From Candidatus Omnitrophota bacterium (GTDB lineage Bacteria; Omnitrophota; Gorgyraeia; Gygaellales; Profunditerraquicolaceae), in contig JBAZKL010000001.1 of the NCBI GenBank assembly GCA_041650835.1, forward strand, positions 701,617-765,616: a stretch of 64,000 nt of DNA, read 5' to 3'. Made by a program: the position numbers and the translations under genes. The notes under the pieces are model-generated. The model made no database searches. It saw nothing but the letters and a program-made list of their open reading frames with translations, and was not told the DNA's origin. This document shows, in pieces, positions 21,001 to 45,000 of the stretch (the first letter of the stretch is position 1; each line of letters starts with the position of its first letter).

Positions 21001-24000
21001 CGCGCTTATAAAAATGCTTTTGCCGGTGCCTACCTTATAACGCTCGACCAATAAACCTTTAAATATGACCCTCCTGAATAAGATCTCCTCAGCGACAGGA
21101 GCCATAATGATATTAGATGCCAGCGATACCATATAAACAGTAAAGCCGCTTGCGAAGAAAGCGGCAACTACTATTGCAGCGGCATTAACCGCAGTAAGCA
21201 GGACAGCGGCAATAAACAGCGTGGATGTTTTCAGAGAAGCTATTTCTTGTTTAAGCGCGGATGAGGCGCGCGGATGAGGCGATTTTGAAGAAACGATAAC
21301 GCGTGTTCTTACCCGGTGCAGGGTGAGCGCCAAGCCTCCGCGCTTTGCCAGGGCAATAAATTCCCCTTTTTGTTCAGGCATAAGCTGCGCGGCTTTAAAC
21401 CAATCTAAGAGCGCACAAGAAAAACCAATTTCCAAAACATGCTCCAATTCAATCCTTCTATTCTTAAGATACCCTTGAACCAAGGGTATTATCGCCTCGA
21501 TTTTTTCCGCTTGGATACCCTGCGCAAGCAACGCCTTTCTGATCAGCGCCAAGCGGCCATTTTCACAAAGATAATCATTTACCTTACCCAAAGCCTGCTC
21601 GACCGGTGAAAAGTTTATCCTCACCCCCTGGCCGCGCTCAAGAAAAACGCCCATCGCCCGGTATTCTTCATAACTCCTTTGCGGAGCTTCCGCGGCGCAT
21701 AAAGAAAGAGGCAAAGCGAGAAACAGCACTTTTGCTATCGCAGCCCTGATAAAAAAGAGCGCTTCGGTTAAATCAACTGACTCATATCCGTCTTCTATCA
21801 AGATCCTGTTTAAATGCCTGCTTCGTTCACCTAAAGGTGAGATCCCATCGTTTAAAGTAAAATACCATTGCGTCAACTCCTTGCCCTGCTTCTTGATCTT
21901 TTGGGATTGCTGCTGCTTCGGCTTGATAAAAGGCGGGCGGGCTAAATTGATGAAAATATTTGTTTGTTTGAGGTGACTTTTTACCTGTTGAGACATCTCT
22001 TTGGCAGTAGCGGCCTGGATAAGCCGGACACCTTCGGGAGGCCGCGCGTGGGTCGGGCCGCTTATAAGGATAACGCGAGCCCCGCTTAAGTGAGCTATTG
22101 CCGCGATCGCGTAAGGCAACTCCGGGCTTACCTGGCGGCTAATGATCCTGACCCCATCAATGGATTCTTCGCTTGAGCCGGATGAGATCAAGATTGTCTT
22201 TCCCGCGACGCCCGCGAACGGCGGATACCGTTGCGCCTGCTCCAACCGCGCTGTTTCACCTTGTTCCCGAAGCTTTCCTTCCAGCTTCACAGACCGGTAA
22301 ACCGGCCTGAGCGAACGCTTACCGCGGACATCTAAAACTATATCCAGGATCTTATCGGCAACAACTGATTTAGATGCTTCCAAGCAAAGATCATCGTCTT
22401 TATTTTCCCTGATGATCACTACTTTATTGTTTTCACCGCGGAAGCCGCTTCCTTCCTGCCCTACCCTATTGGCGCAAATAAAATCCATATTCTTAGCGAT
22501 GAATTTCCTGCGCGCTTCTTCCACCATCGCTCCCGGCTCAACAGTCTCCGCGGCGAAACCAACGACCACTAAGGATGAAAATTCGAGTTTTTCTTTCTTA
22601 AGGCTGCCGACCCATTTTAAAATATCGGGATTATTATGGAGCGTCACGACAAAATCGCGGCGGCCTTCTCTCTCGATCTTTACCGGACGGTAATCAGCTA
22701 CTGCCGCCGCTGAAATATAGACATCGGCAAAGCGCAAATTCTTAGCCACCGCTGCTTTCATTTCCAGGGCAGTGGACACATCGACCCTCATCACGTTATC
22801 AGGAGTTTCTAAAGATGCGGGCCCGGCGACAAGGATAACGCGCGCTCCCCTCTTTTGTGCCGCGGCGGCGATGGCAAACCCCTGCTTTCCTGACGAGAAA
22901 TTCGTGATATATTCAGGCCTGCCCGGGATAGGTTCCCGGTTCGGCCCTGCGGTAACCAGTATAGTCAGGCCTTTAAGATCATCCGCCAAAGAAGAAGAAC
23001 TTTTTATATATTCGCTGTAAACTTTCGACTCGGGGCTCATTTTCTGGGCCACGTGTTCACCAAAGGGATCATCCGTTAAACGATACAGGCTGACCTCGAT
23101 CTCAGGTGCAACGCGCGACGGTGAATATCGGGTAACACAAAACCCTCCCGGGGCAAGCATCTTCCTTAAAATATCCTGCTCCAGCGCCAAATGGGCTTCA
23201 TACGAAAAACTATCGATCATTTTATTGACCAGAATAAAATCAAAAGCTCCCAACTGCGTGCGGATTTGCGCTTCCAAGAAGTTTGCCGAAAGGAAACCGA
23301 CCATTGTTCTTAATCGGGCGTTCACTAAATACGCTCCTGTTTCATCGTCGAAGGTAAAATATTTATTTACTGTTTCCCCGGAAAGGCTGTCAATACTGCT
23401 TTTCCTAAAACGCCCCGTTCGCGCGGCTTCAAGGGCAAAGCGGTTAATTCCAACCTCAGCGATCTCAACAGGACGCGCTTTTGTATCCCAACCGCTTTCT
23501 AATAATTCAACAGCCAGCATGTACGCGTCAGCGCCTTCTCCGTAGCCCAAACAGAGTATGCGTAACGGTTCACCCTGCGGGCGCAAACGCTCCAGTTCGG
23601 GAAGAATGACCCGGCACATGAATTGATGCACCGGGCTGATCTCAAAAGAAGCCCCCCCGGTGATCATCACCGCGTTCAGATAAACCTGCGCGCAATCGCT
23701 TTTGTCCCACATATCTCTTGCTAACCGCTCAAAATCAGCGGTACTTTTGAGTTTAAATAACGCCGCCAGAGATTCATCATATAAAACAAAACAACTGCCG
23801 TAGATGGGAAAATGTATTTTGAATATATTCTCAATGAGTTTTGTATAATATCTCATTTGCGCCTGTTCGCTTAAATTACTATTCACGAAGGCGTATTTTA
23901 TCAGCTCCGATGGATACAAGCCAAACCGCTGCGCGATATCCAAAAGATGGCCGGGGAAACACCACGACCCTTTACCTTGCTCGATCAACCTCTCCATATC

Positions 24001-27000
24001 TTCCCGAACGTACCTGATATAATCATCTTTCCCGACGCCCAATTCCAAAGGCGCAAGCCCCGGTAAAAGAGGATATACGCTTTGAATTGCCTCTCTCAAG
24101 AGCAGGGATTCTTCCTCCGTAACATCCCAGGTAACCCGGCTTTGCCGGAGCGCGATCTTGACATGAGCATCTTTATCAAGCTGTCCATAAAGCCTTCCCC
24201 GGTGATCCTTGACCAAAACAACTCTCTCTTGCCCATGAATGATTTCGTTTACCTCGACTGCTTCATGAGTTTTAAACGCGAAGTAGTAAAACAGCTTATC
24301 CTGCAGCAAGAAAACAGCTTTGCCTTGCTCCTGAAGGCTGTATAACGCGATCATGTCATCCGTATCCCGGATATGCTCATCAACGCGGGACGTAATAAAA
24401 GTGGCTTGCGCGTAAGTGAGCTTACCCATAAATGTATAGAGCAGAAAATAATATTCGAGGTTTGTGCGCGTAAAGATCCGGTCCTTAATTACATATTCCC
24501 ACTCAATACGGTCTAAAACATAATCGATGGTGCAGGAGCTCAAATAAAGACGGATCATGGTCTGCGGATCAGTTAAGCAGAATTTCACCAGTTCATCCGA
24601 ACCGTCTTTATGGACCTGCTCTATTTTCCAGGGGGCCAAGCTTCCACGGCAATATTTCTCAAAGAACCATCCCCACCAGTCGATCCGCTGCCTGCCTGCC
24701 AGTCCATCGGGCGTCCGGGCGTCAAACGCGGGGCTCACCAGCAGATATTGCATCAATTTAACCGTCTCTTCACCCGCATCAACGACCCGGTTATTGACAA
24801 CCAACTCCCGGCGCTCTTTACCATTGATCGCCCACACATTTAAACCCCTGGTTTCTTGCCGCGATTCAAACCTGACAGAACGTAATGCCGGGTCTACATG
24901 ATCGTCTTTGCGCATTAATACCGATACCTGCCTGCCGATAGGCTTTTCTCTGCGGCTATCCCTGATAATGGTACAGTAAAAACCAAAGTTATAAAATGAA
25001 AGGATAGAATCGACGAACCTTCCTTGCCCGCTGATCTGCGCGTCCTCTGCCCTGTGTTTAACATAATCGGGAGTTTCCCCTAAGGCCAGGTCAAATACGG
25101 ATAATTCCGGCGCGTTAAGATCGAACAGGAAAAAGACAGGCAGAGAAAGCTCAAAATGGTTACCATGCACCAAGGCATTATGTAAAAGGTCCCGCAAAGC
25201 GAAATGTATTTCCCCGTAGTTAAACCCATCTCCGCAGCAGGACATATTCCTGGACCGGCCGGTAGGCGTAAAATTCAATTGCCGCGCGAACTCCGCGTCG
25301 ATCAATTGAGCGAATGTATCAAATTCACTCGCCCTGTTGCAGATAAGCTCAAGAGCATGCCCCTGCTTTATGGCGGGAATGACTTTATTGACCGCCTCCA
25401 GGGCATCGCAAAAGGAATCCGGTGAGCCGGTAAGATCTAATTTGATTATTTCTTTGCCTGTTTTATTTCTGATGCGGTCACGAAGAAAGCCTATCTTATC
25501 AGTATCGAACAGCGGAGAAGGTATTTCTTGCCGCTTACAAACAGGCGGCAGCTCTTTCTCTCCCCAATCATCCAGGTCAGGCGGGTCGCGGACCTCATCC
25601 CAACGCGCGTAAAGCTCCTCAAGAGAGATGCCCACATCCGCTGTCGCGGCTAAACCTTCACCGATGATCTTGTCCGCGTCAAAGTCCTCATCATCAACGC
25701 ATCCGGCATAATAATCGTCTAACTCCGCCTGGGTAAGGAGATTTGAATATCTGCGCTGCTTTCTGGCGACCTGGTCTTTAGTAAGCACGCAGAGGCCATT
25801 GCCGCTTGGAGCGCCTAATGCTCTGGTATAGCTGAGCTTTGCTTCATTTGATTCACGACGGGATCTAAGGGGCGAAGAGCCCTCCTGCGAATGCCTTCCT
25901 TGAACCGGAGAACCGGATGACGGCTTAATATTCAACAGGCTTGCGATCTGCGAGCGGATATTATCAACCAGCAACTTAATGCTTCCGGCATCCTGCCGTA
26001 ACCGCGCAATAACAGGCAGCGCGTAATCTCCCGCTAAAACCATAATACGCTTTTGATTCTCCTCTTGTTCCAAACAAAAATACGCCGCATGGGCCTGATA
26101 AGCATCTCCAAGCCCCTGAAGATAGCATTCATAATGCTTACGGAAAACCTGCGGCGCCGGATGAGCAAGCGCGGAATAAACATGCGCGGCTTCATAATGG
26201 TCCTCGGAAGGCTCCCTCTTAAGATACCCGGGATGGAGCATGCTTTCCCTGTCGATATTGATCACCGGCCTTTTTTCGAGAATGATCAGTTCTTCTATCG
26301 GGTATTTACGCAATTTCTCCACATTTATCACTAAATTGTGCCGGCGGTCATTCATGCCTAAAATATGGGCCTCTGCCATAGCCATGCCCAGGCCATAAAA
26401 GAACCGCCGCTGTATTTCTTCACCCAGACGCGACAGGTCCCAGATAAATTCCAGGATATCGATCCCGACGATCTCGCGGATATAGACATATTCCGGGCCT
26501 TCCTTCATCCAGACACTGGGAGCTTGAATTGCCTCAAGCAGCAAATTCCCGACAATACCCGGGATAGTATGTTCTTCGATACTGTTCAAACGCGATTTTA
26601 TCACCACGCGGGAAATTAACCCGTTCGGCTTGATTATCACCGCGAAATACGGCTGTGTGCGCGCTTCAGTGATCTCCCAGATAAGCGGACGGTCTTCGAC
26701 CCTCAAGATGCGGGCGCCGCCCAGGTCAGCCCGGAGAGATTTCTCTATCAAGAACACCTTTTGGCTTCCCGGATGAATAAAACGCATACAATCGGTATGA
26801 CGGGGCAAGCGGATAAACTCATCATCGATAAGAATCCGCCGCTGCAAACGCCCAAAGATCACGTTGACAACCTCATAATCGCGTATATTGCTTAATTGCC
26901 AACGCTCCTCCCGCGTTAACACGCCTCCTTCTATAAGACGGTCCATCGTTAAGATGAACTGAATATCGCACGGGCCGGCTCCCGCGCCATTCTTTAACCG

Positions 27001-30000
27001 CAGCAGCAATGCTCTGACCAGATGAACAACAGCCGCGACTTCGCGCATGGCGCAATCGGCAAACGTCTCATTAAAAAGATTTTCAATATCCTCCCGCTTA
27101 TAAAACTCGCGCTCCATGATCAAGCGCAGACTTTCACTGAATCGGCGGACCATATGATAAAACACAGATACCGGATGCCCGGCAGGAACAGGAGAGCTTG
27201 CCGGCAGGCTCTCGCCCGGCAAAGAGGCTTTCCGGATATTTTCTAAACAGGTAACAACCTTTTGGGCGATATCCAACGTTGTTTCTCCGCGGATCATGAC
27301 TACAGCATTCCTGCGTGAAGGCGCTGCCTGTTCAACAAGCTCAACATCAACGGCTTCCTGCCGCTGCCCGGGCCGCATGCTGATTATTAACGCCGCGTTA
27401 TAGCCGTCTTCCTCAGGGCTTATTTTACCGGCTTCTTCCCAAACAGCGTCGCGCACGGCTTTTTTAACCGAAGCAAAATCAGCGATCAGGCAAAAAACAT
27501 CCCTTGATTGAGCTATCCTGTTCTTTATAATACTGATTAACGGGACCTCCTGGCCTATCTTCTCATCGATACGCTTGCCCTGTATATATATATGCCCTCT
27601 CTTCTGGGAGACGGCCTGCGTGATAATAGCCATACGGATGAAATCTCCGACGCTTGCTTCATCGAAGAATTCCCCTTTAAATTCAGCGCTTTCCTTTGCC
27701 AGGAACAGGTAATAAACCAACGCTTGAATGAACATCACCTCATCGATACAGCGTAACCCTTCATGCCCTGAAACAACTCCGGCGACCGCGCGTAATCTTG
27801 CCACCTGCCGCGCCTGCTTTGTATGTAATACTACCGGGGGTAACGCTTGCTCGCGGATCCCTAATAACCGGGGATGCGCTATTAAGGGAAGGTTTACCGT
27901 GATCGTAGTCCCCTCGCCGGGGATTGAAACCACGCTGATACTTCCTCCGGCTTCACGGATCAGCTCGCGCAGCGTATAAAGGCCATGGCCGGCCCCTAAC
28001 CTGCCTTCATCCACCGCGTCGAATTTCGGCACAAAGATACGCATCACTTCTTCCTCGGGGATATGCATACCGTCGTTATTAAATTCAATGCTCAAGAAAT
28101 TCTTATTTAGATACGCATTGATCGTGATCGTTAATGCTTCATGCGGCAGGCGCGCGTGCTTGTCCGCGTTAGTCACGAACTCAACCAGGATCATACGCAG
28201 TAAACTCACATGAAAGCCGACATCCTTAAGTTCGCGCACCCCCGCCCCCGGATTAAAAGTTATTTTCGTAGCGGGCGCTTTATATTTCACCCCTATTTGA
28301 GCGAGGGTCTGATCAATTTGTTCAACAATATTGCATTGCGTCATCGCCATACCCGACCACCAGAAAATATCATTACAGTATTCCAATACCGTTTTAATAT
28401 ATTCCAGGATAGTGTCGATATAAAGCTCATGGCCGAGTAATAATCCGGTACCCCGCGCTTTTCTGATGCGCTCCTGCCTATCCTTAAGGATGATCGCCGC
28501 AGACTCAATATACGAGAGAAGCTTACCCACCGGCACCTCTCTTTTGACGCATTGAATAAACATTTTAGGGATCGTATCCAGGATCTCCCTGCACGCTTCC
28601 AAAGAGCAAAACACGCACAGGTCATCTTTATCGGATACCTGCGCGGTCATGTTCTTAAACAGCCGGACAATAATACCCGGTATCATCACGCAGGTATTCT
28701 TAAGATCATGGACCAACCCCAATAAATGCACGTTTTCCGGGACAGTCGGCAATTCTATAGTGAACTCCAAACCTCTCCTGATATCTTTATATCCGCCCCA
28801 GCCGTTTTTAAGGCTCGCGTACACGTGATGCATAAAATGATTACTTAAGCTGATCTGTCCCCTTATCAAGCCGAGCATTTTGGCGATACGATAGAGATTA
28901 AGGGAGCCTTCGGGGACCCTCCTGCGGTAGAACGGCTCAAACATGAACGCCAGATCTTCAAGCGGAGATCCCTCTCCGTTATCGCACACATGAAGGAACA
29001 GCCTCCTGTTCCTCTGTTCAAAAGTAATATGTATGGAGCGCGCTTTCGCGTAACAGGCGTTCTTGAAAAGATGCGCCAGGATATCAAACAATTCCTTACT
29101 TACGATAACATTCGCCGGCTCATCCAAATAACTAAAGCTGAACCGGGGAGCGGACGCCCCCAGTACCGATTTCAGGTCCTCGATAGCCGCTTTAATTTCT
29201 TGAGCGAGATCCTGGGCAGTCATGGTCAACGGCTCAATGACGCCCACCCCTGAAAGGGCTTCAGTGACCTGCGTGGTAAGCGAAGCTATATTCTCTATTT
29301 GCACCTGGACGCCGGTTAAACAGTTCTTGCATGATTGCGTTTTGCCCGCGTCAAAACCGGCGCAACCGCCGCATTGCATGGGCCGGCTTAATATCTCGAC
29401 ATGGCCCCTGACCGCTTTTACCGCGACGCCGACTTCAGAAAACACCTCCTGTAGTATTTTCTCGACATCCGCGTCCTTATTAGCCACTTTATTCTCCGCT
29501 TTCTTGATAACGCTATCCATGCGCGCCTCAAGTGCGGTGATCTCATCCGCGATACCGATGAATTCTTCACTGCGTTCCCACGCGGGATGGCATTGTTGGC
29601 GCATATACTCTAAAGAATCTCCCAATGAACCGACATAGCCGGACAGCGCTCGAGTAAAATAAATCGCGTTATATTCATTCTTTAATATTGAAAGGGTTTC
29701 CCGGGCTTTTGCCTGCACAACCGGATCATTATCTAAAAGCATCCCCTGCATAAGCACAGGCGCGATAGTCTGGGAGCCGGCTTCCCGCATATCTTGCGCG
29801 AGCTGGACCTTTTGCGCGCTGGAACCTTCGCGGGATATCCTGATAAACCAATCCCTGATGCATCCGGTTTGTTCAAAGCTGGCATACCACCAGAGTAACA
29901 CAAAACTTTTTTCTCTCTCTTGAGCCGAAGCTTCCGGGGAAAGATACACATCCATAGCCTCCTTAAGCTGCCCCTTAAACCCGTCCCGCAAGGGAAGGTG

Positions 30001-33000
30001 AACGGTCATTTTCCCGTTCTGCTTATAGACCGTAGCGTATTTAAGGCTTTCATCGTCAGCGGGAGTAGCGGTGAAATACAATGAGAACTCGAATTCTCCG
30101 GGGACTACGGGGCGCACCGGGACGCGCACTCTAAAAATATTATGCGCTTTTTCATCACGGCCGGGATCTCCAAAATGCCAAAGCTTATTATCCTCCTCGA
30201 GTGAGCTTGCCTTATAGTTATCACGTATAATATCCGAGACTTCCACTTCATCCAAGCTTACCTTCATTGAGCCTCGCGGCCAGAAGCCCAGGGAGATCTT
30301 CCCGGATTTCAGGTAATCGATTAATTCTCCCGCCGTGACCTTCTCATTAAGCTCAACGCTCGCGTAAGCCCAAAATCTTTCTCCGAAGACTATGGAATCC
30401 TGGATATTTCTTTCCTCTGTACGCTGGTCGATATGCCAGGCATCCAGGACTTTCAACGCGAGAGGTATCCCCGGCAGAGTGATTGCGGCATCCCGCTCTC
30501 CCGATAACGGTGATCCGCTCTGCCAAGCTATCCCCTGGTCATTGAATTCCCTTAATACTTTTTTTACCTGTTTGGCAAAGAAAGACATTTGGTATTCATG
30601 GACGAAATAAGCATATTCCCTGGCATCGCGGGAGATTTCAGGAAAGATCTTCTTAACTATTTCAGTACTGTAGCCCGCGGAAGACTCCATAACGCCTAAA
30701 GCATTGATGCCGAGCTGATAGAGATTCTCCGCGACATGCAGATACGAACGTTGTAATGAACGCTTGAGCGGCTGGTGAAAACCATTAACTTCCACGAAAT
30801 CGACCGTAAGGTATCCCCGCTGTTCACTGCCCAGGCGGGAGCGCTGCATAAAATTAACAAACCCGGGAGCGTCATAAACTAAACTTTTGAAATCACCGTT
30901 TTTTCCGATAACTAACGTCACATCAGAACCTTCACGGGCCTCAACAGCTCCGCCGAGTGCCTGCCGCATATAGTGAGCGGCCTTGTAGATCCTCTCCCCG
31001 GATGCCTCGGTCAATATCAAAAGATTAACATCGCTTATCTCTTTACGCGCCAGCCCAAGGTAACCCATGCTTCCCACCATCCAGACTGAAAACGGCTCAA
31101 GAGAAGTAAGCAGTAGTTTTTCCCGTATTATAAATTCCCGCAGCGCGTCCCGGAAAGACTCCTTCTCCTGTTTACTGAACAAAATTTCCAATAATTCATC
31201 GCGCTCCCAGGATTCAGGCACCGGATAATCGCGTTCAAGGACCGCGTCAAGGAATGCTTTCATGCGCGTAAAACGCTCCGCCGGGTCAGGAACGCTGTTT
31301 TCAGAAAGACTGTCTTCCAACTGATTGTAACGCCGCGCGGAGGCGTTCTTGCCGCTCACATCCCCGGTATCGCGCTTATTATTATGAGGAGCGGAAAAAG
31401 AAATAGTCACATGCGTATTCGTTAACGGATGGTTCCTTTCCCTGCGCACGGCGATAAGCATCTCTTGCTCGACATAATCCTCCAAATTAACGCATAGATC
31501 AGGGCTCCACCTCTTGAGCGTTTCCAAGACCGTATTAATCGCCGTCCCCATAAGATCATCGCTGTAAAAAGACCGTTCAGCCGAAACAATCCGGTTCAGC
31601 GGGTCCACGCCGCTAAACTGCTTCATCAATCTGAACGCGGCCGGCAAAAATAACTGAAGAAGTTTTTCCTGGGCCGCTTCATCACCGTCTTCAACCATCA
31701 TATACCAGAGTTCGGACTTACTGACGTCATACGCGTCAATTCCCGGAACAACTTGCTCATTTTCCTGTGAGTAGTCCCACAGCTTAAGCATGAACTTCTG
31801 ATGCCCGGTCAATTCGATCGGCTCTTTCTCCTTACGGGGCTGACTCTCAAGAATTCCGTACCTGCGGGCCGCATCATATAGGCACCAATCTCCTCCCTCA
31901 GCGATCTTACGTTTAAGCGCCTCAGGGGTACGGTCTTCAGGAGCGCGGCTATAATATGCTCTTTGCGTAGATTCTAAATCAGGATATTTACGCCGCTTCC
32001 CCCAAGAATTGATCCGCGCTGCCTGCCTCTGTTGATACAAGGCGACCTCCGGGTAAGTTACTTTATCCATAGTATCTACCATATCCGTAAGCTCTGATAT
32101 ACCGCGCGCCCCGGTGATCCTTACTTTTAATTGCTTCAGATAAAGTTCGCGCTTTTTAGCCGCGATAAGATCGACTATTTTACCTCGCCGCGGCTCTCCT
32201 ATTGAGCCGTCAACGTTGAGCTCTTCCAGCGCGGGAAGCGTATGGGCCCGGCGAAGCTCTTCCCGCAAGTGCCGGACAAGCTGCTGCTCCCGAGCCTGTG
32301 CTAATTTCTTTCGTTTAATATCCTTAACGCGTAATATTCTTGCCGACGTCGGATCATCAAAATCAGTAACCGCGATCTTTTCCAGCTCTTCTAAAGACGC
32401 CGCATGAAGGATCTCCTGGCAAATAACTCTTATTCGATTGCGACGGACTGCCTCTTTCCGGAGCAGATCCCTCTGAATCCGGTACAAATACCGCAAGCAA
32501 TCCCCTGAGGAGGCGCGGCCGCCGTCCAAGAAGAACAACAGTACATTTCTAAAATCTTCTTCGTGTGTTTTTGCTGTTTCCGGGCTCATGCGGCCTATGC
32601 CCTGGCGCAACGAATTAACCTCTACTATCAAGGAACGGATACGATCAGCCCGGCGGGCAACGGTCTTCTCTCCGAAAACACGGATTTTCTCCGTCTCAAG
32701 CCTGCTCTTCAAAGCATGAAGGAAATGAAGCGCGCGGGGATAATCATCCTGTCTTACCAGGGCAACTGCCTGGCGGTACCTGCCGGCTAAACGCCGCATA
32801 TGGAAGGACTGATATATTTGAGATCTTTCCCCAAGCTGCTTTCTGAGACTGCCTCCCTGTAAATCTATCTCTACAAAAGGCCTGCCGTCAGTACCATAAA
32901 CAGGCTCACCGCATTTATCACGCAGGTAACGGATACGCGCTATCCGGTTAGCGCAGGCAAGAATAGCGACTGCTGTTTCGGTAAGATGCTCCGCGGTAAG

Positions 33001-36000
33001 GTCGAAGTCGCGGAACCAAAAACGGCCGTTAACATCTGTTGTAATCCCCTGAACGATAAAATTACCGTTGAGGGCGCCTGCAGCCTGCGCCTCCAGATTT
33101 TCACTCCAGCGTTCAAAAACCTCAACTAATTCTCCCGCCGCGAAATCATCTGGACTAAAGCGATTATCAAGGGCATAAAGTTTATGCAATTTCTTACGCG
33201 CCACTGACCCGTCTTTTTTATTCGCGTAAGCGCTCACCAGGAAAGCTTTCTTATGAGAAGGATTCAGAATGCCATCCACACAGGCGAGTTCATAGCCGCA
33301 CTCGGCGCTAAAATCCATTCTTACCCGGTTAGCGATGATCAAAAGCCCCCGCTTCGTAAGGCGTTTCTGATGGATCTCATGCCAGGGATGTAATCGGTTC
33401 AAATGCTCCTCAAGAAAACGGCCCCAGACGCAGGAAATGAATTTATCCAGGCGCTTATCCTTGATCAAGATAAACGGCTCATCAAGGCGGGATTCCAGCG
33501 AAGAACACCAGGATACCAATCCATCCCTGACCAGAAGCTTCACTTTTTGATAATTGTATTCCTCGCCGAAGGATGCCCAGCTCCAATTCCCCTTTTTACG
33601 GTCGCCCAGGATATTCGGCCGCCTGCCGCCGATACGCAGTTGCCCCTTAAGCCCCAGAAAAGTAAAGGTTGTAATATCGTTGTAACGCATGAATTTATCT
33701 GAAACGATCGTACCCCGGTGTACATCGATCACTTCCCCGGTCTGATTATCTATAATAGGGAAGAATTCAAACCGCGTGTGGTCTTTAAAGAAAAATACCT
33801 GCTTTAAAACGCCTTTATCCACTTCAAGCTCATAGGCGGAATTTTCATATCCCCGGAAACCAAAATTATATTCACCGATACGCAGCTTAAAACTATCTTC
33901 CAAAGCTCCTCGGATCACCACATGCCCGAGCGCACAAAGCATTTTACGGTTAACTGAGCGCGGCAGGTCATGCCGGTCAAGATACCGCACAAGCGCGTCA
34001 TCGCCGAAAGATCGGGACAAAAGCTTTCTCCATATAAAGAAACGCGATTCGCGGTCATCCTGCGGCAAAACAAAATCCTTATGCAGCTCCTCCTCCTTCC
34101 AGAGCATGCGCTGTAAATCGATGATACTTGCGCCGGGAGCGAGCAAAACGGGAGAACTCGAGGCAAGCTTATCCTGCTCCTCTTTAACTTTCAGCACCTG
34201 GCTGATAAAGAACCTGATCAGATATTCATGCATAAAATAAACATAATCCAGGGACGGCTCAGAGGTGACGCCGATAAGTTTATCGGCCATGTGCCTGCTT
34301 ACCCCCGGCGTTGACTCCATCACCAGGATGCCGTTTGAACCTAACTGATATACGTTCTCCAGGATCTGGACGCGCGCCCGGTACATGCCGCGCATCTTCA
34401 ATTGCGCGCAATCACTGACGCTGAACAGCTCCAGCGATAAATACCCTTTCTCCCGGTTGCCCACATTATGGCGGGCGAGAAGCTCGGCGAAATCAGGAGA
34501 GTAGCTCTGCGTGTCCTTAAGATCATCAGCCTTGCCGACGGTCAGGGAAATCCCGTTCCCGCTATTTTCAGAAACATATCCGGTGAGTTTTTCGCGCATG
34601 TAATGCGCCGCCTCCACCAGCTTTTCTCTTTCCGTTTCCGCCAAAAGCATAAGATTAAGGTCGCTTACCCCTTTTCTGGCTAAACCGATATTGCCTAAGC
34701 TTCCCATGATCCAGAGGGCGAACGTATCAAGCCACGGCGGGACCAACTGCCGGCTGACCATAAATCCTTTCAGATCGGCGCAGAGCGCGTTCTTTTCCTC
34801 GCGGCTGAATAAACGCTCTTGCGGCACTTCAAACGCCCCCAACTCCGGCAGACAAGGGTATGCCCCGGAGTTTAAAGCGCGCAAAGATTCCTGCATCCTT
34901 ATCAAACGTTCGGGAATGCCCGTAGCGTGGGGATCGGACAAGGAATCATTAACTAAAAATCTTTTGTCTCCCCAGTCGGATGTGCGCGCGACACTCTGGC
35001 CGCGTCCCCGCGAATCATCGGTGGAAACGAGCATGAACTTACGATCGAGAAGATCAGCGCTTCCTTTCTCTTTACATATAGCCGCAAGGATCCTTTCCCA
35101 AACGAATTCCTCTAAATCGCTTTCTTCCTGAAGGCTCCAGGCATCTATTGCTTCAATGAGCGCTAAAATAGCTTCCCCGCTTTTATCGTCTTTAAAATAA
35201 TCCGCGGACGCTTCTTTTCTTCTCAGGAACATGGAAAAATCATGCTTTCCGTCTATTTCGCGGTATATCCGGGGAAGAAAATACCCGACGATCGTATCCC
35301 TGGCGGACTGATCGCCGCTTTCTTTCATCAAGTTCCAGAGCTGCCTTAAATCGGCAGCGCTCACCTCATGCTCAGAGGCATTCCCGTTCCCCTTATTGAA
35401 TTCAAGCATTTTTCCCTTAAAGCTCTGATAACCGCTTACCGCCGGCTCTCCTGCCGACGGAGATAATTGCTTCTTCGCCGACTTATAGAGACTGTTTAAC
35501 CTGCGGCGCGATAATTCTTCCAGCTTCTCAATGTATTCAATTGATAATTCGGGTATCGCGATATTTTCAAGTTCCTGATTACTCTCGGCAAGCCTGATCT
35601 GTTTCTTTATTTCTTTAAATAACTCCCTCTCGAAAATATTTCTTAAATACGAGGTCCTCTTGCCTAAGAGGATCTTCATTTCTTCTTGAACCCCCGGAAG
35701 CAGGCCATCGAAAGTGACCGTTTCCAGCAGAGCAACATCCTTTATGGAACGGATCATTTTCCTGATCCGGCATTGGGCCTCCCGCGAAATGCGTTGGATT
35801 ATTTCTTTACGCTTTGCCTTGCGTAATAATTCGATTTCTTCCCGGTCAGCGCTTTTTAGATTATCCCAGGACAAAGCGTGCAGCGCTTCAACGGTAACTG
35901 CCTGACGGATAAGATTCTTTGCCTGACGATAACAGAAATCAGCCATCTCCATATCATTCCACATATCCATGACCACGCGCTCGATTTCGCGCAAACGGCC

Positions 36001-39000
36001 CTCGGCTGCCGGATCAAAATAATGAAATTCAAGAACATCCAATGATCCCATCAAAGCAGGGACACCAGCTCCTTCAAAAGAAGAAAGTTTCCGGCGCAAA
36101 CTCCCGATAGTGCGCAACCAACGCAATATTGCTTTTGCCTGATGAGCAAGCTCACCTTCCCCGTTTATCGCGATCCTTCGCTGCCTGAAGAACTTCCCTA
36201 TCTTAACGAAAGCCTCCCTTGCATTTTTTATATCAGCATTTTCATAATAAGCTAAAGCTTGAACGAAACACGAACGCACTAAAGACAGCCTTTTAACCTG
36301 ATAAGCACGGGCTTTTTCAAAACACTGGGCCTTAATGCCTAAAGAAAGGTCTATCACAAGCGGTAAGTCATCATTATCAAATACCGGCAGGCCGCGATTA
36401 TCGCTTATGAACCTTACCAGTTTCTTTTCCCCTGCGATCACCAGCACCTCAACCTCGGCTGAAGCGAAGAAATCATCTGAAAAAGAGGCAAGAAAACCCT
36501 GTAATTCCAGGACTCCGTCGGCGGTTAACGTCCTGGGGGAAATAATGTAATCTTGCGCGGTCAGCTTAGACATCTTTTTGTCGCTCCATTTCTCAAAGAC
36601 AGCCAATAATTCCCCCTTTACGAAATCCTGCGGACGGCTTCCCGCCTTAATCGCGTAAACACCAGAGAGTATTTTCTGGGCCTTAATGCCGTTATCCCAG
36701 ACCCTGGCGCCGCAGATAAAGGCTTTTTTACCGCTGGGATTACGGATATCAAAGATATCTGCCTGACGATAAGAATAATCCGCTCCGAAATTCATCCATT
36801 CTTCACCTCCTAAAGCCAAAGAACCGTCCTTGCTTAAACGCAACGCGTGGATCTGATGGTAACCGGCCAAAGCGTTCAACTTTTGACGGGTTATGGTAGA
36901 CCAAAAACAATCAATATACGTATCATTACGCGCGTCCCAAATGAGGGAAAATGTTTCATTCAGCCCTGATTCCCATGAACAGCAGCGCCTCACCAATCCG
37001 GCCTTAACATAAACATTTACTTTTTCATAGGCAAACCTGCCGCCGAACTTTGCCCAGCGCCTGCCCGCCAGATCCAATATTCCATCCATGCCCAAATATG
37101 CCTCGATCACCGCATCTTGATATCCGGTGAAACGCTCTTGAGGGATCTTTCCGCAATGCAGATCAATGACTTCGCCTGTATACTTATCAGTTACCTGAAG
37201 AAATTCTTCCAGGCAATGGTCCTTAAAAAAGAATACGCGCTTAAGGATGCCGCCTTCTATTTCCAACTCATAAGCTGACCCGCCATACTTCGTGAACTTA
37301 AAGACATACCCGCCCATAGAAAGAGAGCCGCCCTGAGGCATTGTTCCGGATATCACCGCATGCCCCAGCTCTCGCAGCAGCTGCCGGGTTATGGTAAAAG
37401 GCAGAGAACCCCGTTCATGCCTCTTAATAAATCCTTCATTCCTGAAAGATATTTGGAGAAGTTTATCCCAGATCAATTGACGAAGCATCGGATCAGGTTC
37501 TTCAAAGCCGCGCCCCTTCTGCCGCCACAGCTTCTTCTGCAATAGATACACACCTTCTTCCCTCAATCCGGGCCTTTCCAATAACCGTTGCCCTTCAGGG
37601 GATATCTCCGGCATCTTAAGAAGCTGCTCCCCGGATTGCCCCTGGCGGTAATACGCCGCCGCGTGCGGGACTAAATGGAGCGCGTCATCCGCGTACATCT
37701 TAGCATCACACCTTACCGCCGATGAAGACCGGGAAGCTGCCCTCGGTTTCTCAAAAACCCTTAAATGCCCGTCAAGCAGTTGTTTGAAACCAGCGCTTAA
37801 AACTAATGATGAGCCCTGACGGACCTGCCAATAAATACTTTCATCAGCGCCATAAATTATCAGCTTACTTCCCGGCCCTAATTCTCTCTGCGCCTTGGCG
37901 ATCACCGCGGTATTTGTCGAACCTGCCCAGAAATAATACACAAAGTCAAAACCGCTCAACTGGCTTTTTAAGAAATCTCCCCTGACAAAATAAACCTTGC
38001 CTAAATCAAGGATCTCGCCTAATTGAGCGCTCACCCGCGGATGGACACTTATGTTATACAAACCAAAATCATACTCTATTCCTTTTGCCTGCGCGCCTAA
38101 AAGCGCGGATAGATATACAACCCTGCCGTCTCCACTTCCTAAATCAAGCAGGCTTTTTCCCGGTCCGACCCCAACCGACCTTAAAGCACCCGCCAAATCA
38201 TCCAGCCCATGCAAAGACGGTAAAAACGCGCCCCGGCCCCCCGCCACATGGCCTTTTGATAAAGGATCTAATGTCCCCTGAAGGACCATCTCGAATTTCT
38301 TCAAAGTCTCCTGCGTAACATTACAGGAAGATGAAGAACCCAAAAGTTCAAGACAGGCGCGCGTATGAAAATAACGCACTTTTTCTTTTAATGAATGCCT
38401 CCCGTCATCCTCACCGGAAAAGCCGGCCCTTAAAGCTATCGCGGAAGCGCTGGGGCCGGGAATGATCTTCTTATACCATGCCTGGAGCAAGACGGCCGTT
38501 TCTATAATGCTCTGGGGATACAACGAAACAGGGACGTATCCCAGATTACGCGCGGCTTCATCATAAATTATCCGGGCTGCGTGTTCAGGGATATTGGGCC
38601 ATTTATCTTTTTGATGAGCGGCGGGAGTTACAAAAATATCCGGTATCTTATTTTCTAAAGCATAATTCTCTAACATCGCCAGCGCCTGTTCAGGCCATGC
38701 CTTGAAAAGTTTCTTCCAGCTATTCCTTAAGTGTGTTGCCAGGTCACTCTGTATCTCTGTCACTATTAAACTCTCTGCCTGCTTCTGGAATCTCAGATAG
38801 TAAATGGCACGGGGGATATGCTGCCTTAAAGCGCCGGTATTGTTCCATAACGGAGGTTCTTCCTCCGAGAAGAAAGCAAACACCTGACTGCCCTCATCGG
38901 CAAACGGCAAGGCGGGGATCACGACAACTATGCCCGGGACGGGAGCGACAACTGTCTTCATATATTCGGGGTTCAAGAGTGCCTCAGGGAACCGCAAAGC

Positions 39001-42000
39001 CATCTGCGCCACAAAATAGACATCTTTGAGCCGGAAAGGAATAACACCCTTGCCCTGTTGTATCTGCGTAAGCGCGCGGGCAATCCCTTTTAACGACTGG
39101 CCCTGGCCGCTGTGCTGCCTCATCAATTTAACAAACGCATCCTTGAGAAAAATGATGTCCCGGTCTTGAATATCGAATTGATACAGCAAAAACCTCAATG
39201 CTTCCGGCAGTGAGCCGATATCAGCGGGACTGACCAATGCTGAGGAAGCCCTGGACGATAAAACAATTCTTTTGAGTAATGCGGCATATGCAGCGCCTAC
39301 CACAAGATTATTTCTCCTGGCAGCCTCCAGATAAAAACGCGCCTGCTGCGGGTTGAAGCTGAAATAGGCGACAGATGCCCTGAGCGCATCCTGAAGGCTA
39401 CGGCCGCCGGCATAATTGAGCACATACCGGGAAATATCTTGTTGAATAAAAGGATCGAGATTAAAGAAACATGGATGGATGTATATAAGGGGAACCCTCC
39501 TTTGGCTATAAATCGCGGCCACAGGAGCAAACCTTGTATTGGGGGAACACTGAAGATCAAACCTCTTCTCAGTGACTGCCACGGTGAATTTCTCCGGAGG
39601 AGCGTTTTGCAGGTATGACCTGATGGAGATAAGATAATCGTTAAAAAGTCCCGCTAAGGCCGCCCGGGAAAGCTCATCTAAACAACCCCGCAGCATATAT
39701 TTATTGCTTTCTAAACTGATACGTACCCCCCGGTTAAGGTTATAAGAATACCTGGAACCATCCGGATGAGGCACAAATAACGGATACGTATGAACAGGAT
39801 CTTGAGCCAATGGACAGGTATCAAGAAAATCCTGAAGTTTGAGCAAGTTGTTCTGCCGATTTGCTGCAAAGCCTGAAGAAACAGGCAAAACAGGCGAAGC
39901 AGAGGTATGTGCGCGTAAAACAATTACTTTAGTACTCTGATAAAAAGATTCAATAGACCCCGGCATCCACCACCCTTTAAGCTGAGGACGAAGTATGAGC
40001 TCAGGACGATGGAAGATAATAACACCGGGGTTCAAATGATACCCCTCTGACATAAGCCCTCTGACTTCTATGAATCTGTCCCCCTGGAAACTTTTCCCCA
40101 GCCTCATGAGCGCCCTGCGGATGGCGATATCCTGGAAATGGTGGCTGGAAGTTTCCTGATGTTCATAATCTGTACCGCTTTCGATATTAGTCACATTATT
40201 ATCGTATACATCCCGGGCAACACCTACCAGCCATTCCAGGACATCAACATTATTCCTGAAGAATTCAACATAGGCATCCTCATATAATGCTAAAGCCTCG
40301 CGCACAGAGACAAATTTACCGTTAATATGATGCAGGATCTCCCAACCGCCTTCCCCAAACCATTCATTGAGCCTGCCATAAACTGCCTGCCGTTCAAATC
40401 CGAAGAACCCGCAACGGAAATATTCTTTTTTGCGGTAGCTCCTCAAAAATTCCGATCTGCTGACCTTCAAAACCCGGTTACTGCCCCTGATATGCGTTAT
40501 CCTTTTCTTGCGCGGGGCGACCGTAAGGGCCTTTTGCGCCGTCTCAAGGATAGCCAATCCTTCTTTTTCCCGGTAATAGTGCACCGCCTCATTGTATAAC
40601 CGCAGGCTGTGATATATATGCAGGGCCATTAAATAACGGGAACGCATCGGATAAAAAGTGATCGCCCCGCTTTCCAGATCACGTTCTTCCATGTAAAACG
40701 GCCACTCAATATCACAAAATCCTGTCTTTACCTTGGGGAAGCGATGGCTGATCTTTGGTAAGCCGACCCTCTCTCCCCTGCCATAACCTACAAAACCGTC
40801 GACTGACTCAAACGGTAACTCATCTTTTCCGGCGAAATACTCAAGCGCCGTTTTAATATAATAGATAGTCCTGCCGGTGGCATGAAGGTCTATTATCCTG
40901 ATCTTTTTATAGTTAAGCGCTCCTATATCCTTACATTGTTTATAAATGAATTCCGCTTCCTGCATGATAAGATCATCTGACTCGATCACGGATATCAGTT
41001 TTTCTTTGAAAATACGGGAAAATTCCCTATAAAGTTCCCGGTCAAAGTTGGCTTCATCAACCCCCCCGTAATATTCTCTCTGCTGAGGAACATTTAATTC
41101 TGCTTTTGTTTCATAAAAGATCCTCCCCGTTGTTTCTAATAAATGGCTCAAGCTTTCGGTCGAGCGATAACAACTATAATTAAAATGCGCAGGCAGGCCG
41201 GGCTGGTAGACTATACCACTTCTTTTCCTGCCTTTAAAACTATCAAGGTAATGCAAGAATTCAAATCCACTGATCGCGTCCCGCGCTAAAAATATCACAA
41301 ACTCATCCTCCTCGAGCGACAAGGCGTCAAAAAGCCAGCGATGGTCCTCGATCCGCCCCTCCAAACATAGTCTCGTACCGATGCCTCCATTCCTATCCAT
41401 GGCCCCAAAATCATCCATCATATACCGCTCCATCGAGTCATTCGGACAAAAACCTTTCTCAAGCAGCGATTCATTGGCTAAAGAGATAATCATGAACATC
41501 TCATCTTTATGCAGGAGGCGCGCCGCTCCATCTTCAGCCAAGATCCGCAATTCCTGCGGAATGGCCCAAAATAAGTTATTCAGGTCAGCTCCTGAAACCC
41601 CTCCGGGCCGGATTATTTTATCGATGCTGTCACGATAATGTTCAACTAAAGACAATAACTGCTCATGGGCAGGATATACAATATTACCTCGGTCATGCGG
41701 ATATACCTCCATAACCAAAAGCTGCTGATCAACGAAGAAAAACCGTAGCGCCGTATTGTTATAGCCGATGAAAGATATCATCTCTCGATCATCCGTAATA
41801 TACGAATAGGGGACAAGATACCTTCCTTCTGCATCTTTTATCGCTCCTCTGATCCCGTAATACCAAAACTGCTTATCTTTATCGATGAAATAAGATACGG
41901 CGACCTCACAGGCCTGCCGCGACAAATCTTTTGAGCAGGACAAAATGTCTGCCACTCTTTCAATAGTATCCAGGGGAATGAATTTATTCTTTTTCGCTCT

Positions 42001-45000
42001 CTTAGCGAGGGGCGAAGTGCAAACAGGAGCAGATGGATCTTTGGCGGGAGGAAAAATAATGATCATGACAGAAGATACAGGGGTAATAGACTTCAGCGCC
42101 GTATCGAATGCTACTTCAACGTAATCGGTGTTTTCATTCTTGACCTTAATGCGTTTGTGATGATCGGCGAAATAAGCTCTCACCAGCTTATAGATCCTGT
42201 CCGCGCATCCGGCATCAGAAATTACCAGTGGCCGTGAGACCTGAAGGCAGGATTCGAAAAACCCAAGTAATACAGATTTCGCGATACCCTTACGCTGCTG
42301 ATTCTCATAAATATCGATATTATCAATAATCAATTCCTTATCAGTAAAATGCGCGTAAAAAGTTCCCGCGGAACGGCCGTCTTTAAAGATACGGTAGCGC
42401 CTTCCATAATCCAGCTTAAATGTCAGGATGAAATTATTATGCTTGATTTCAAGGCCGGGGATATCGATGAACATCCGGGGAGCAGCCGCCAGGCCGCCGT
42501 CTGTAACCGCAGAAGAAGCAGTGTTTCTCACCCAAAAGAGATTTGAAGAATAGCCGTTTATAGCTATAGTATCGCTATCTGTTAAACAATATCCCAAGTC
42601 ACAAGGCAATTTTGTATACAACGCGTGGAGGATATGCGGAGGCGTTCTATAGCCCCGGGACGTCCACTTCTTTACCTGGTATTCTACCGGAGTGATATAA
42701 ATACGCTGCCATCCCTGACAGGCGGCATATTTCTGGAACGCGCGCAGAAGCTGTTTCGGCCAATCAGAGAATTGCTGTTTCATCTCCACAGGAAGCAATT
42801 TATACATATCGCTCTGTATCGAGGAAATTACTTTCCCGGCGGCATTCTTCTCAACCAAAAGGTAGGCAAACGCGCTATAGGTATGCTCCCAAAACATCTT
42901 ATTCTCCCTCATGCCGCGCACTGCTTCTTTCATCCTGCCGCTTTTAGGCAAAAGTATGAACCTGATCTGTCTTTTTTCTCTTCCCGGGACAACCCGCGCC
43001 TCTAATTCTCCCGCGTATATCTCTTCTGAATAATCATGCCTTTCTTGATGCGTGATCCTTAATAGCTCTTCAAGCGGCACATACCTGGCCAGCAAAGAAA
43101 GGAAAACCGGTTGCAAAATACCGCTTTTTCTGACACTGCCTAAAAAGGCGATAATTTCATTGATTGAACGCTGCTTATCTCCTTGATCATGCATATTAAG
43201 ATCTTTAACTGCGGACTCCAAGCCCAAGGCCTTACAATAACTAAGAATAACCGCCAGATCAGCCAAATCTATCCTGGACTGCAACAAAGTATCGATCACG
43301 CCCTCATCAGAGCCGGATCGTAATTGTTCATATATAATCCTCAAATCAACGGGTTTAAAATTATATACCGGATTATGGGCTTTCATAATACGGCAAAAAG
43401 CGCCAGAAGCTTGCGTATCCTCCTGGTTGTTTGATATTATTTCAGCTAAAATGCCGGCGCTCTGCCAGGGAAGACCATGTTTTTCTCTGAACATTATTGC
43501 TTTTCTTAAAAAAACTTTATCCACAGAGGCGTCCCTCAGCAATGCTTCCGCGAAATACCCTTTTTCCGTATTATGTAAAAGCTGGTATCTATCCCGCAAC
43601 CCGCAATGGTCATTACCCGTAAAATAATCACCTGCCATAACACAATCAGCTAAATAAATACCCGGGATGCCCTCTCTAAGCAGGGGCTCAACCAACTCTT
43701 TTCTTCCTCCCGCCGCGGCAACAGCTTTTGCAAGAGAAGTAATATCAAAAACACCCAATATACCTTTCTTCTTTTGATCGTTGAGATAATCAACCGTAGA
43801 GAGCACGAGAGGATCGTCGTGCTTAAGAAGCAAATAAGCTTCCACAAACGAATGGATATAGCTCTTAGGAAAGCCACTCGCCTGAAAAGAAGGCAATGCG
43901 CATTGCAGGGCGCTTATTCCAAAAGCTTCCGCCGCGACTTTAAGGCTGGTTAATTCTTCATTCGAATCAGGCCTGATCTCTCCGATCAAATCGATCAGCG
44001 CGAAGGTACGCTCATCCAATCCGATCTGCGATATCACCCTGTCCAAACGCGCCTCCTGATACAACGGCCTATTCCGGTAGTTCTTAAGCTCTCTTAACGC
44101 GGTTTTTACGTCGTTCAAAGAAAGCTTCCCTGCCCCTGATTGCGTTTGGCCGCTCATGATCGGGGATGAACCCAAGTTCCGGGCAAATACGGCATGATAG
44201 GGAGTAGGATACCCCTGCCAATCATAGATCATTTTTTCATTAATGCCCTGTTCAAAACCGGCATTAACGAAGTAACTCTTTACTAATGCAATTCTTTCTC
44301 TCTTGTTCGATGCGGCTTGCCAGGGGAGGCTTCTTTCTTGAAGGGCAGACCGATGGTCAAAGACTACGGCAAGACAAGCACCGGGCATAAGCACTCGCTT
44401 GGCTTCCATAAAAAGCTCACGGGCAAGCTTAACGTAAGCGATCCCATTGACCATGAGAATACCCGCTATGCTTCTCTCGGGGAAATGTAATGACGGATCA
44501 GTATTTAAATCCTGAAGAATATAGCCGCCATTTAAACTTTTATTAGCTTTCAGTTCTAATTCATTTAATCCTATCCCGGTAATCTTACCGTTAAGCGTTC
44601 TGGGGAAATAAGTATTGGCTCCGCTCATGAGATCAAGATACACCGGTTCAATAACGCCCGTCCCGCGGGGAAGGATATTAAACAATGCCGCCCTTATCGC
44701 TTCTGACTGATCGGTATTCATATACCCTAAATGATTAGGCGTTTCCCAGGAAGAGATCATCTTTTGCTCATCCCCTGAAACGCTATCACCTGTTCCCTTA
44801 TCCCCATTAATATCTCTGTCTTTGCTGCTAAGAGAAACATCAAAAAGCCTGGTCGCCTGCGGAGATGATGATCGTCCTTTCCCTTTCTTATAATACCCTT
44901 CAAATTTCTCTACAGCAGGGCCTATTCTCCTGAAATAAAGCTCCCAGTCACCGGTATCAACATCCAGAATAAACCTCTCCAAAGATCCCCGATATACAAA

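Follow-up and report, generated by a model that had tools for sequence, protein, structure and literature searches.

The subject of this analysis is a 64,000-nucleotide (nt) stretch of a Candidatus Omnitrophota genome (contig JBAZKL010000001.1, positions 701,617 to 765,616 of the forward strand), referred to below as the window, and a cassette that occurs in it twice in tandem. The cassette has four parts: an array that we call domain X, a helical linker, a domain resembling region 2 of sigma-70 factors (sigma-like domain) and a domain resembling the nucleotidyltransferases (NTases) of the Pol-beta type (NTase-like domain). The feature is a family-level new variant of the NTase fold that is joined to a sigma-2-like domain and occurs duplicated in a giant multi-enzyme gene. 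We consider it probable that this is a four-part cassette duplicated within a giant protein, whose NTase-like domain carries an ancestral and selected Asn at the second carboxylate position, rather than a mutation common to three copies.

Tandem duplication of a four-part cassette

Two adjacent cassettes of ~3.4-3.7 kb each were found on the minus strand in the same frame (Table 1). A whole-protein self-BLAST returned the identity match only, and the repeats were seen once the open reading frame (ORF) had been chunked. Chunked self-BLASTP then gave three collinear matches between the cassettes, pairing residues (aa) 8820-9140 with 9962-10300 (E=1e-69), 9001-9432 with 10160-10598 (E=3e-37) and 9499-9941 with 10712-11151 (E=8e-48). 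Global alignment of copy 1 with copy 2 showed 367 identities over 1154 aligned columns (32%). The DNA similarity between the cassettes was confined to a single 90-nt stretch with 69% identity, located at the GS...DxN motif, and the two units are therefore paralogous at the protein level only. An earlier note, made from the sequence alone, had proposed such a tandem duplication of a multi-domain module with paralogy restricted to the protein level, and both proposals are borne out; the five peptides that it quoted all lie where it had placed them, in one minus-strand frame. It had described three parts where we find four. The C-terminal 190 residues of its "helical region" are the sigma-like domain, and the description as merely helical is not supported.

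A hidden Markov model (HMM) scan (--max) identified exactly three pairs of sigma-like and NTase-like domains and two X arrays in the window. The third pair belongs to a partial copy, with no X array or linker upstream of its sigma-like domain S3, and both cassettes match aa 20540-21004 at E ~1e-31. This third NTase-like copy had already been recognised in the earlier note, which missed the sigma-like part that it also carries. Searches of the cassettes with Pfam and NCBIfam gave no significant family. Judged by these sequence comparisons, a cassette of four parts was duplicated in tandem long ago inside a giant multi-enzyme gene.

Table 1. Coordinates of the cassettes and their parts within the window
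Feature	Position (nt)	Strand	Residues and remarks
Giant open reading frame	1..64000	-	zero stops in one frame; many enzyme Pfam domains
Cassette copy 1 (X1, linker, S1, N1)	34135..37566	-	aa 8812-9955; self-BLASTP, MAFFT alignment with copy 2
Domain X copy 1 (X1)	36220..37560	-	aa 8814-9260; local HMM match E=9e-238
Helical linker copy 1	35398..36219	-	aa 9261-9534; low-identity alignment with copy 2 linker
Sigma-70 region-2-like domain S1	34831..35397	-	aa 9535-9723
NTase-fold domain N1 (predicted)	34168..34830	-	aa 9724-9944
N1 motif residues	34660-34662 (D9780); 34654-34656 (N9782)	-	G9766-S9767; D9780; N9782; candidate third acid E9857 in YLSLELF
Cassette copy 2 (X2, linker, S2, N2)	30430..34134	-	aa 9956-11190; self-BLASTP, alignment, HMM scan
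Domain X copy 2 (X2)	32731..34131	-	HMM scan, alignment
Helical linker copy 2	31744..32730	-	part of cassette copy 2
Sigma-like domain S2	31201..31743	-	part of cassette copy 2
NTase-fold domain N2 (predicted)	30538..31200	-	Asn codon 31024-31026
Third, partial copy (S3 + N3)	1147..2382	-	aa 20540-20951
Sigma-like domain S3	1813..2382	-	aa 20540-20729; hmmsearch E=3e-59
NTase-fold domain N3 (predicted)	1147..1812	-	aa 20730-20951; Asn codon 1642-1644; hmmsearch E=1e-66; motif GSLGYVGLARKNRSDLNL

Motif and predicted fold of the NTase-like domain

The three window copies of the last domain read SDLNL, SDVNL and SDLNL, with the Asn codon AAT in each, which agrees with the earlier observation of Asn at the second acidic position. 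The family signature is hGSxGxxGxA(R/K)x3(S/C)(D/N)xN(L/I), with an acid six residues past the Asn and, farther downstream, a Glu in a beta strand. The three paralogs were used to build an AlphaFold2 (AF2) model of aa 9530-9965, which had a mean predicted local distance difference test score (pLDDT) of 59.5, with values of 70-91 in the core. The model contains, in order, a helix, a strand (..WIMG), the GS loop, a strand (DLNLMLL), a helix, a hairpin, helices and a strand (YLSLELF). When the model was compared with the PDB using Foldseek, nearly all entries in the top list were sigma factors or Pol-beta NTases (best E=0.015). A 29-sequence family profile was aligned to kanamycin NTase with hhalign, the kanamycin NTase sequence being identical to PDB 6un8/1kny, and gave a score of 24.9 and E=0.0054 over 105 columns. 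In this register helix 1 was aligned, the GS corresponded to G38-S39, the Asp to D50 and the Asn to E52. Control comparisons gave scores of 13.3 +/- 2.5 for 200 shuffles (maximum 23.8) and 11.7 for the reversed sequence, and E=0.49 for an unrelated segment.

The domain thus shows the features by which the Pol-beta fold is defined (PMC2794190), namely an alpha/beta core, an hG[GS] motif that opens helix 2 and a strand 2 with the first acids. It lacks both the three-carboxylate pattern of two-metal catalysis ([DE]h[DE]h plus h[DE]h) and the G-x(9-13)-D-x-D pattern of GlnE/GlnD. From the sequence and the model we conclude that the last cassette domain is a divergent member of the predicted Pol-beta NTase fold with Asn at the second metal-binding carboxylate position. 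The Pol-beta-type fold proposed in the earlier note is likewise supported by the AF2 secondary structure and the kanamycin NTase register.

Distribution and conservation of the family

An exhaustive profile search over 1.84 billion representative proteins retrieved 102 proteins at E<=1e-3, of which 43 reached E<=1e-30. Most are very long (up to 7051 aa), and several of those looked up end at contig ends. They come from Omnitrophota, Endomicrobiales, Planctomycetales-like and other metagenome-assembled genomes (MAGs); the sources given by name are Omnitrophota, Endomicrobiales and one 'Deltaproteobacteria' MAG. Several carry an automatic annotation, either 'sigma-70 family RNA polymerase sigma factor' or 'helix-turn-helix domain-containing'. 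No homologues were returned by a word-indexed protein search with copy 1, profile A1 and profile A6, and a tblastn search against plasmids and phages gave no match.

Local hmmsearch gave 47 matches to the NTase-like domain, and ~45 instances were aligned for conservation. The Asn at the second carboxylate position was present in 44/45 instances and the Gly-Ser in 41/44, while the first Asp position was D in 36/45 and N in 8/45. An acid six residues past the Asn was found in 43/45 and the Glu/Asp of the downstream strand in 44/46; a Lys in helix 1 (43/43) and Asn163 (36/36) were invariant. Since the Asn is ancestral to ~45 instances over several phyla, it represents neither an independent nor a recent change, and the claim that the three window copies share the same Asp-to-Asn change does not hold. 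By this alignment the NTase-like domain defines a previously undescribed predicted domain family, of which the Asn is the hallmark.

A sigma-like domain lies immediately upstream of 25 of the 46 NTase-like instances. The order X, sigma-like, NTase-like also occurs in P0001, P0007, P0013 (1318 aa), L001 and L002, and P0003, P0015 and P0040 are multi-copy proteins. Helix-turn-helix (HTH) matches were found upstream of the NTase-like domain in P0083 and P0090, all below the Pfam gathering cut-offs except HTH_6 in P0083. The contigs that encode P0090 (811 aa) and P0066 (545 aa) are 43-71 kb long and both proteins look full-length, so the NTase-like domain is not confined to giants. We also noted that in P0083 (952 aa), P0090 and P0056 (793 aa) the D-x-N domain either follows a weak HTH_6, HTH_24 or Sigma70_r4-like stretch or precedes a phosphate acetyltransferase domain.

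Selection and related giant genes

The 11.9-kb contig L001 (CAZPNW010000130.1, 'uncultured Planctomycetales bacterium') consists wholly of one ORF collinear with the window, with X1 78% identical and cassette 2 72-77% identical. It lacks the sigma-like and NTase-like domains of cassette 1 together with most of that linker (at L001 aa 2146-2203), and also window aa 11189-12238, ~1050 residues past cassette 2 (at L001 aa 3422-3423). Because L001 is collinear and has both X1 and cassette 2, the duplication predates the split of these organisms. Domain-scale insertions and deletions are still ongoing among related giants. Ratios of nonsynonymous to synonymous substitution (dN/dS) against L001, at a dS of ~1, were 0.18 for X1, 0.15 for X2, 0.20 for the linker, 0.16 for S2 and 0.11 for N2. 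The NTase-like domain is under strong purifying selection, which excludes simple decay.

In a second relative, L002 (Ga0172375_10000289), one cassette with 41-52% identity lies close to the 3' end of a different giant ORF. At nt 13669-21129 of L002 this ORF ends and is followed by a sugar-type ATP-binding cassette importer, made up of a solute-binding protein with two permeases, and by a GH2-like glycosidase. Carbohydrate import systems adjoining giant genes have been described (West-Roberts et al.).

The sigma-like domain

The sigma-like domain comprises the ~190 residues that precede each NTase-like domain. An initial match to WhiG was weak. A 13-sequence profile of the domain matched WhiG (7.9e-6), sigma-K (2.8e-4) and FliA (7e-4) in the PDB, and sigma factors made up 32 of its 33 matches. 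Likewise, all 23 NCBIfam families matched by the sigma-like segments are sigma factors (best E=1.2e-6). No match to Sigma70_r4 or another HTH was found at E<=10 in the three window copies, and region 4.2 would be expected at the point where the NTase-like domain begins. The domain therefore has the fold and sequence of sigma-70 region 2 and lacks the region 4 HTH for -35 recognition. A Gly-rich loop, S-L-x-x-P-x-G-N-K-x-G ... G-G ... T-L-E-D, lies between the sigma-like and NTase-like domains (e.g. aa 9650-9700); it is kept family-wide (alignment A5) and disordered in the AF2 model.

Domain X, the linker and the surrounding open reading frame

Domain X is an array of ~80-residue beta-rich repeats, capped at its N terminus by a helical segment. 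An internal repeat was detected between positions 70-185 and 152-271 (hhalign E=4e-6), and the AF2 model was beta-rich but poor (pLDDT 48.7). The domain had no Pfam or PDB match, in keeping with the remark in the earlier note that it belongs to no recognisable family. The linker is ~280-330 residues long and gave only sub-threshold Pfam matches (TPR_8 E=0.0035, DUF7674 0.023, DUF3135 0.17).

The minus-strand frame that contains the cassettes has no stop codon over 64,000 nt (21,333 codons), compared with 746-1667 stops in the other five frames by a frame-wise count. As this frame leaves the window at both ends, the window covers an inner part of a gene that exceeds 21,333 codons. This stop-free frame had been missed by the earlier note. 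Its translation needs no alternative genetic code, and residue a corresponds to window positions (64000-3a)..(64002-3a). At least 15 distinct, unrelated enzyme families were recognised along the ORF with Pfam, where the domains include DFP, HATPase_c, Rce1-like, CheR, PIG-L, GT2, ThiG, B12-binding, Carb_kinase, APH, CTP_transf_like and HD as well as several methyltransferases, one of them PrmA-like. The ORF thus has the properties of class 1 multi-enzyme giants of Omnitrophota, a single ORF of >=10,000 aa with many distinct enzyme Pfams and no dominant repeat. Such a 'multi-enzyme metabolic cluster' class of giant proteins is known from Omnitrophota (bioRxiv 10.64898/2026.06.07.730766; West-Roberts et al. 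2023).

A simple hydropathy scan revealed seven hydrophobic segments resembling transmembrane helices, and the giant protein is probably threaded through the membrane. Such segments lie at aa 8349-8367, 14080-14101, 14259-14347, 19167-19266 and 19442-19460, some inside the Rce1-like region. Further protein-level internal repeats were found by chunked self-BLASTP (E 9e-12 to 2e-4), pairing aa 3900-4098 with 18944-19134, 7038-7138 with 8393-8489, 13708-13765 with 13963-14020, 16866-17076 with 18090-18310 and 548-668 with 2761-2880.

Proposed function and alternative readings

The Gly-Ser loop and the Asp/Asn/Glu site of the NTase-like domain could hold one Mg-bound nucleoside triphosphate (NTP). 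The domain may then serve as a nucleotide-binding, possibly low-turnover or single-metal, regulatory or adaptor unit, with the sigma-like or HTH domain as an obligate partner that would supply a protein or nucleic-acid contact and the X array as a putative binding scaffold. The duplication would have yielded partly redundant copies, and a related genome has lost the sigma/NTase half of copy 1. Classical two-metal transfer by the NTase-like domain appears unlikely, because both strand-2 carboxylates can be Asn.

Several points weigh against this proposal. No known NTase family model was significant, the best values being 0.014 for DUF294, 0.025 for ANT(3'') and 0.22 for NTP_transf_2, each from a single member; the non-significant single-member matches to DUF294, Adenyl_cycl_N, NTP_transf_2, ANT(3'') and ANT(6) do all point in the same direction. 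The fold assignment draws on one AF2 model from three paralogs (mean pLDDT 59.5), all Foldseek E values were >=0.015, the hhalign probability was 6.8%, and the shared location of Asp, Asn and Glu is deduced from strand positions only. In 18% of members the first Asp is itself replaced by Asn, which disfavours classical two-metal catalysis. In addition, Tam41/MMP37 was once predicted to be inactive for want of carboxylates (PMC2794190), yet it has been deposited as a phosphatidate cytidylyltransferase with CTP-Mg (PDB 7ecd), and it gave the best NTase match. Motif-based calls of activity are therefore unreliable in both directions.

An active, non-canonical nucleotidyltransferase is a possible but rather unlikely alternative. 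Here the D-x-N...E site would bind one Mg2+ through the Asp, the Asn carbonyl and the Glu and would transfer a nucleoside monophosphate to a protein, small-molecule or RNA acceptor, for example by AMPylating either an adjacent domain within the giant protein or a partner that the sigma-like domain binds. However, the first Asp is also Asn in 8/45 members, which leaves one carboxylate, no acceptor is evident, and no known D-x-N NTase family was found for comparison. We regard as doubtful the reading of the domain as a purely structural pseudo-NTase that binds no nucleotide and acts in dimerisation or in protein or RNA binding, like the NF45/NF90 DZF domain, Utp22/NRAP and the Lin28-interacting module of TUT4. 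The hG[GS] loop and the former active-site residues are the best-conserved positions of the family, which would be unexpected for an unused pocket.

The earlier note had taken the domains to be of GlnE/GlnD type, that is, adenylyl- or uridylyl-transferase modules each with the same inactivating Asp-to-Asn substitution. We consider this highly improbable. Searches of the window copies with GlnE, GlnD_UR_UTase, NTP_transf_2 and any other Pfam or NCBIfam NTase model gave no match at E<=10, the GlnE/GlnD profiles (PF03710, PF08335) gave none among 29 family members at E<=1, and the family profiles matched no NTase chain in the PDB, GlnE or DrrA included, at E<=10. DrrA was structurally no better than many other NTases. 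A specific relationship to GlnE was rejected on the lack of a profile match, the D-x-N in place of D-x-D and the ancestral Asn.

Finally, the sigma-2 and NTase(DxN) didomain could be a hitherto unrecognised transcription-linked module, that is, a degenerate sigma factor with a nucleotide-sensing NTase-fold domain in place of the promoter-binding sigma-4, which is repeated within giant multi-enzyme proteins and docks RNA polymerase at the beta-prime clamp helices. The beta-prime clamp helices are the RNA polymerase site used by sigma and RfaH/NusG. This idea is a long shot; if true, the effect would be to couple or protect the transcription of the giant gene itself, or to tune its expression to NTP supply.

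Significance and comparison with known systems

The conserved pair of a sigma-2-like domain and a predicted NTase fold with an invariant Asn is absent from Pfam. Often in multiple copies, it recurs in giants from uncultured bacteria, among them Omnitrophota, Endomicrobiales and Planctomycetales-like ones, as well as in a few proteins of ordinary size, and it offers a handle on large unannotated stretches of giant genes. Where such giants have been named 'sigma-70 family sigma factor' by automatic annotation, the name stems from the sigma-like/NTase-like module. The finding raises the question why sigma-factor domains occur within multi-enzyme giants. With this family the NTase superfamily also gains a naturally occurring D-x-N variant, which bears on one-metal chemistry or nucleotide sensing. 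Term searches found neither 'sigma' nor 'nucleotidyltransferase' in bioRxiv 10.64898/2026.06.07.730766 or in West-Roberts et al. 2023, and a literature search found no paper on sigma-70 in giant Omnitrophota proteins.

Like the multi-enzyme giants of Omnitrophota, the window ORF encodes one huge polypeptide tiled by unrelated enzyme Pfams, with a few hydrophobic, possibly membrane-spanning segments and with repeats kept at the protein level though diverged in DNA; unlike them, its nearest relative carries the label Planctomycetales. The sigma-like domain shares the region 2.1-2.2 sequence signature and the sigma-2 fold with group 3 sigma factors (WhiG/FliA, SigI, sigma-K). It differs from these in having no sigma-4 HTH, in being internal to a protein of >21,000 aa and in being followed by an NTase-like domain. 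The tryptophan pair with which sigma factors melt the -10 element is, by inspection, not conserved.

The NTase-like domain differs from the minimal Pol-beta NTases, kanamycin NTase ANT(4') and MNT/NTP_transf_2, in that Asn replaces the second carboxylate (E52 of kanamycin NTase) and no Pfam or NCBIfam model is significant. Unlike these enzymes, it sits inside giant proteins and is joined to a sigma-like domain. GlnE, GlnD and DrrA have D-x-D rather than D-x-N, and the window domains have no HMM match to them and no detected GlnE-type C-terminal domain. Tam41/MMP37 is only 7% identical, belongs to an unrelated biological context and has no sigma-like partner. In contrast to the Lin28-interacting module of TUT4, NF45/NF90 DZF and Utp22/NRAP, it is the GS loop and the former active-site positions that are most conserved in the window family.

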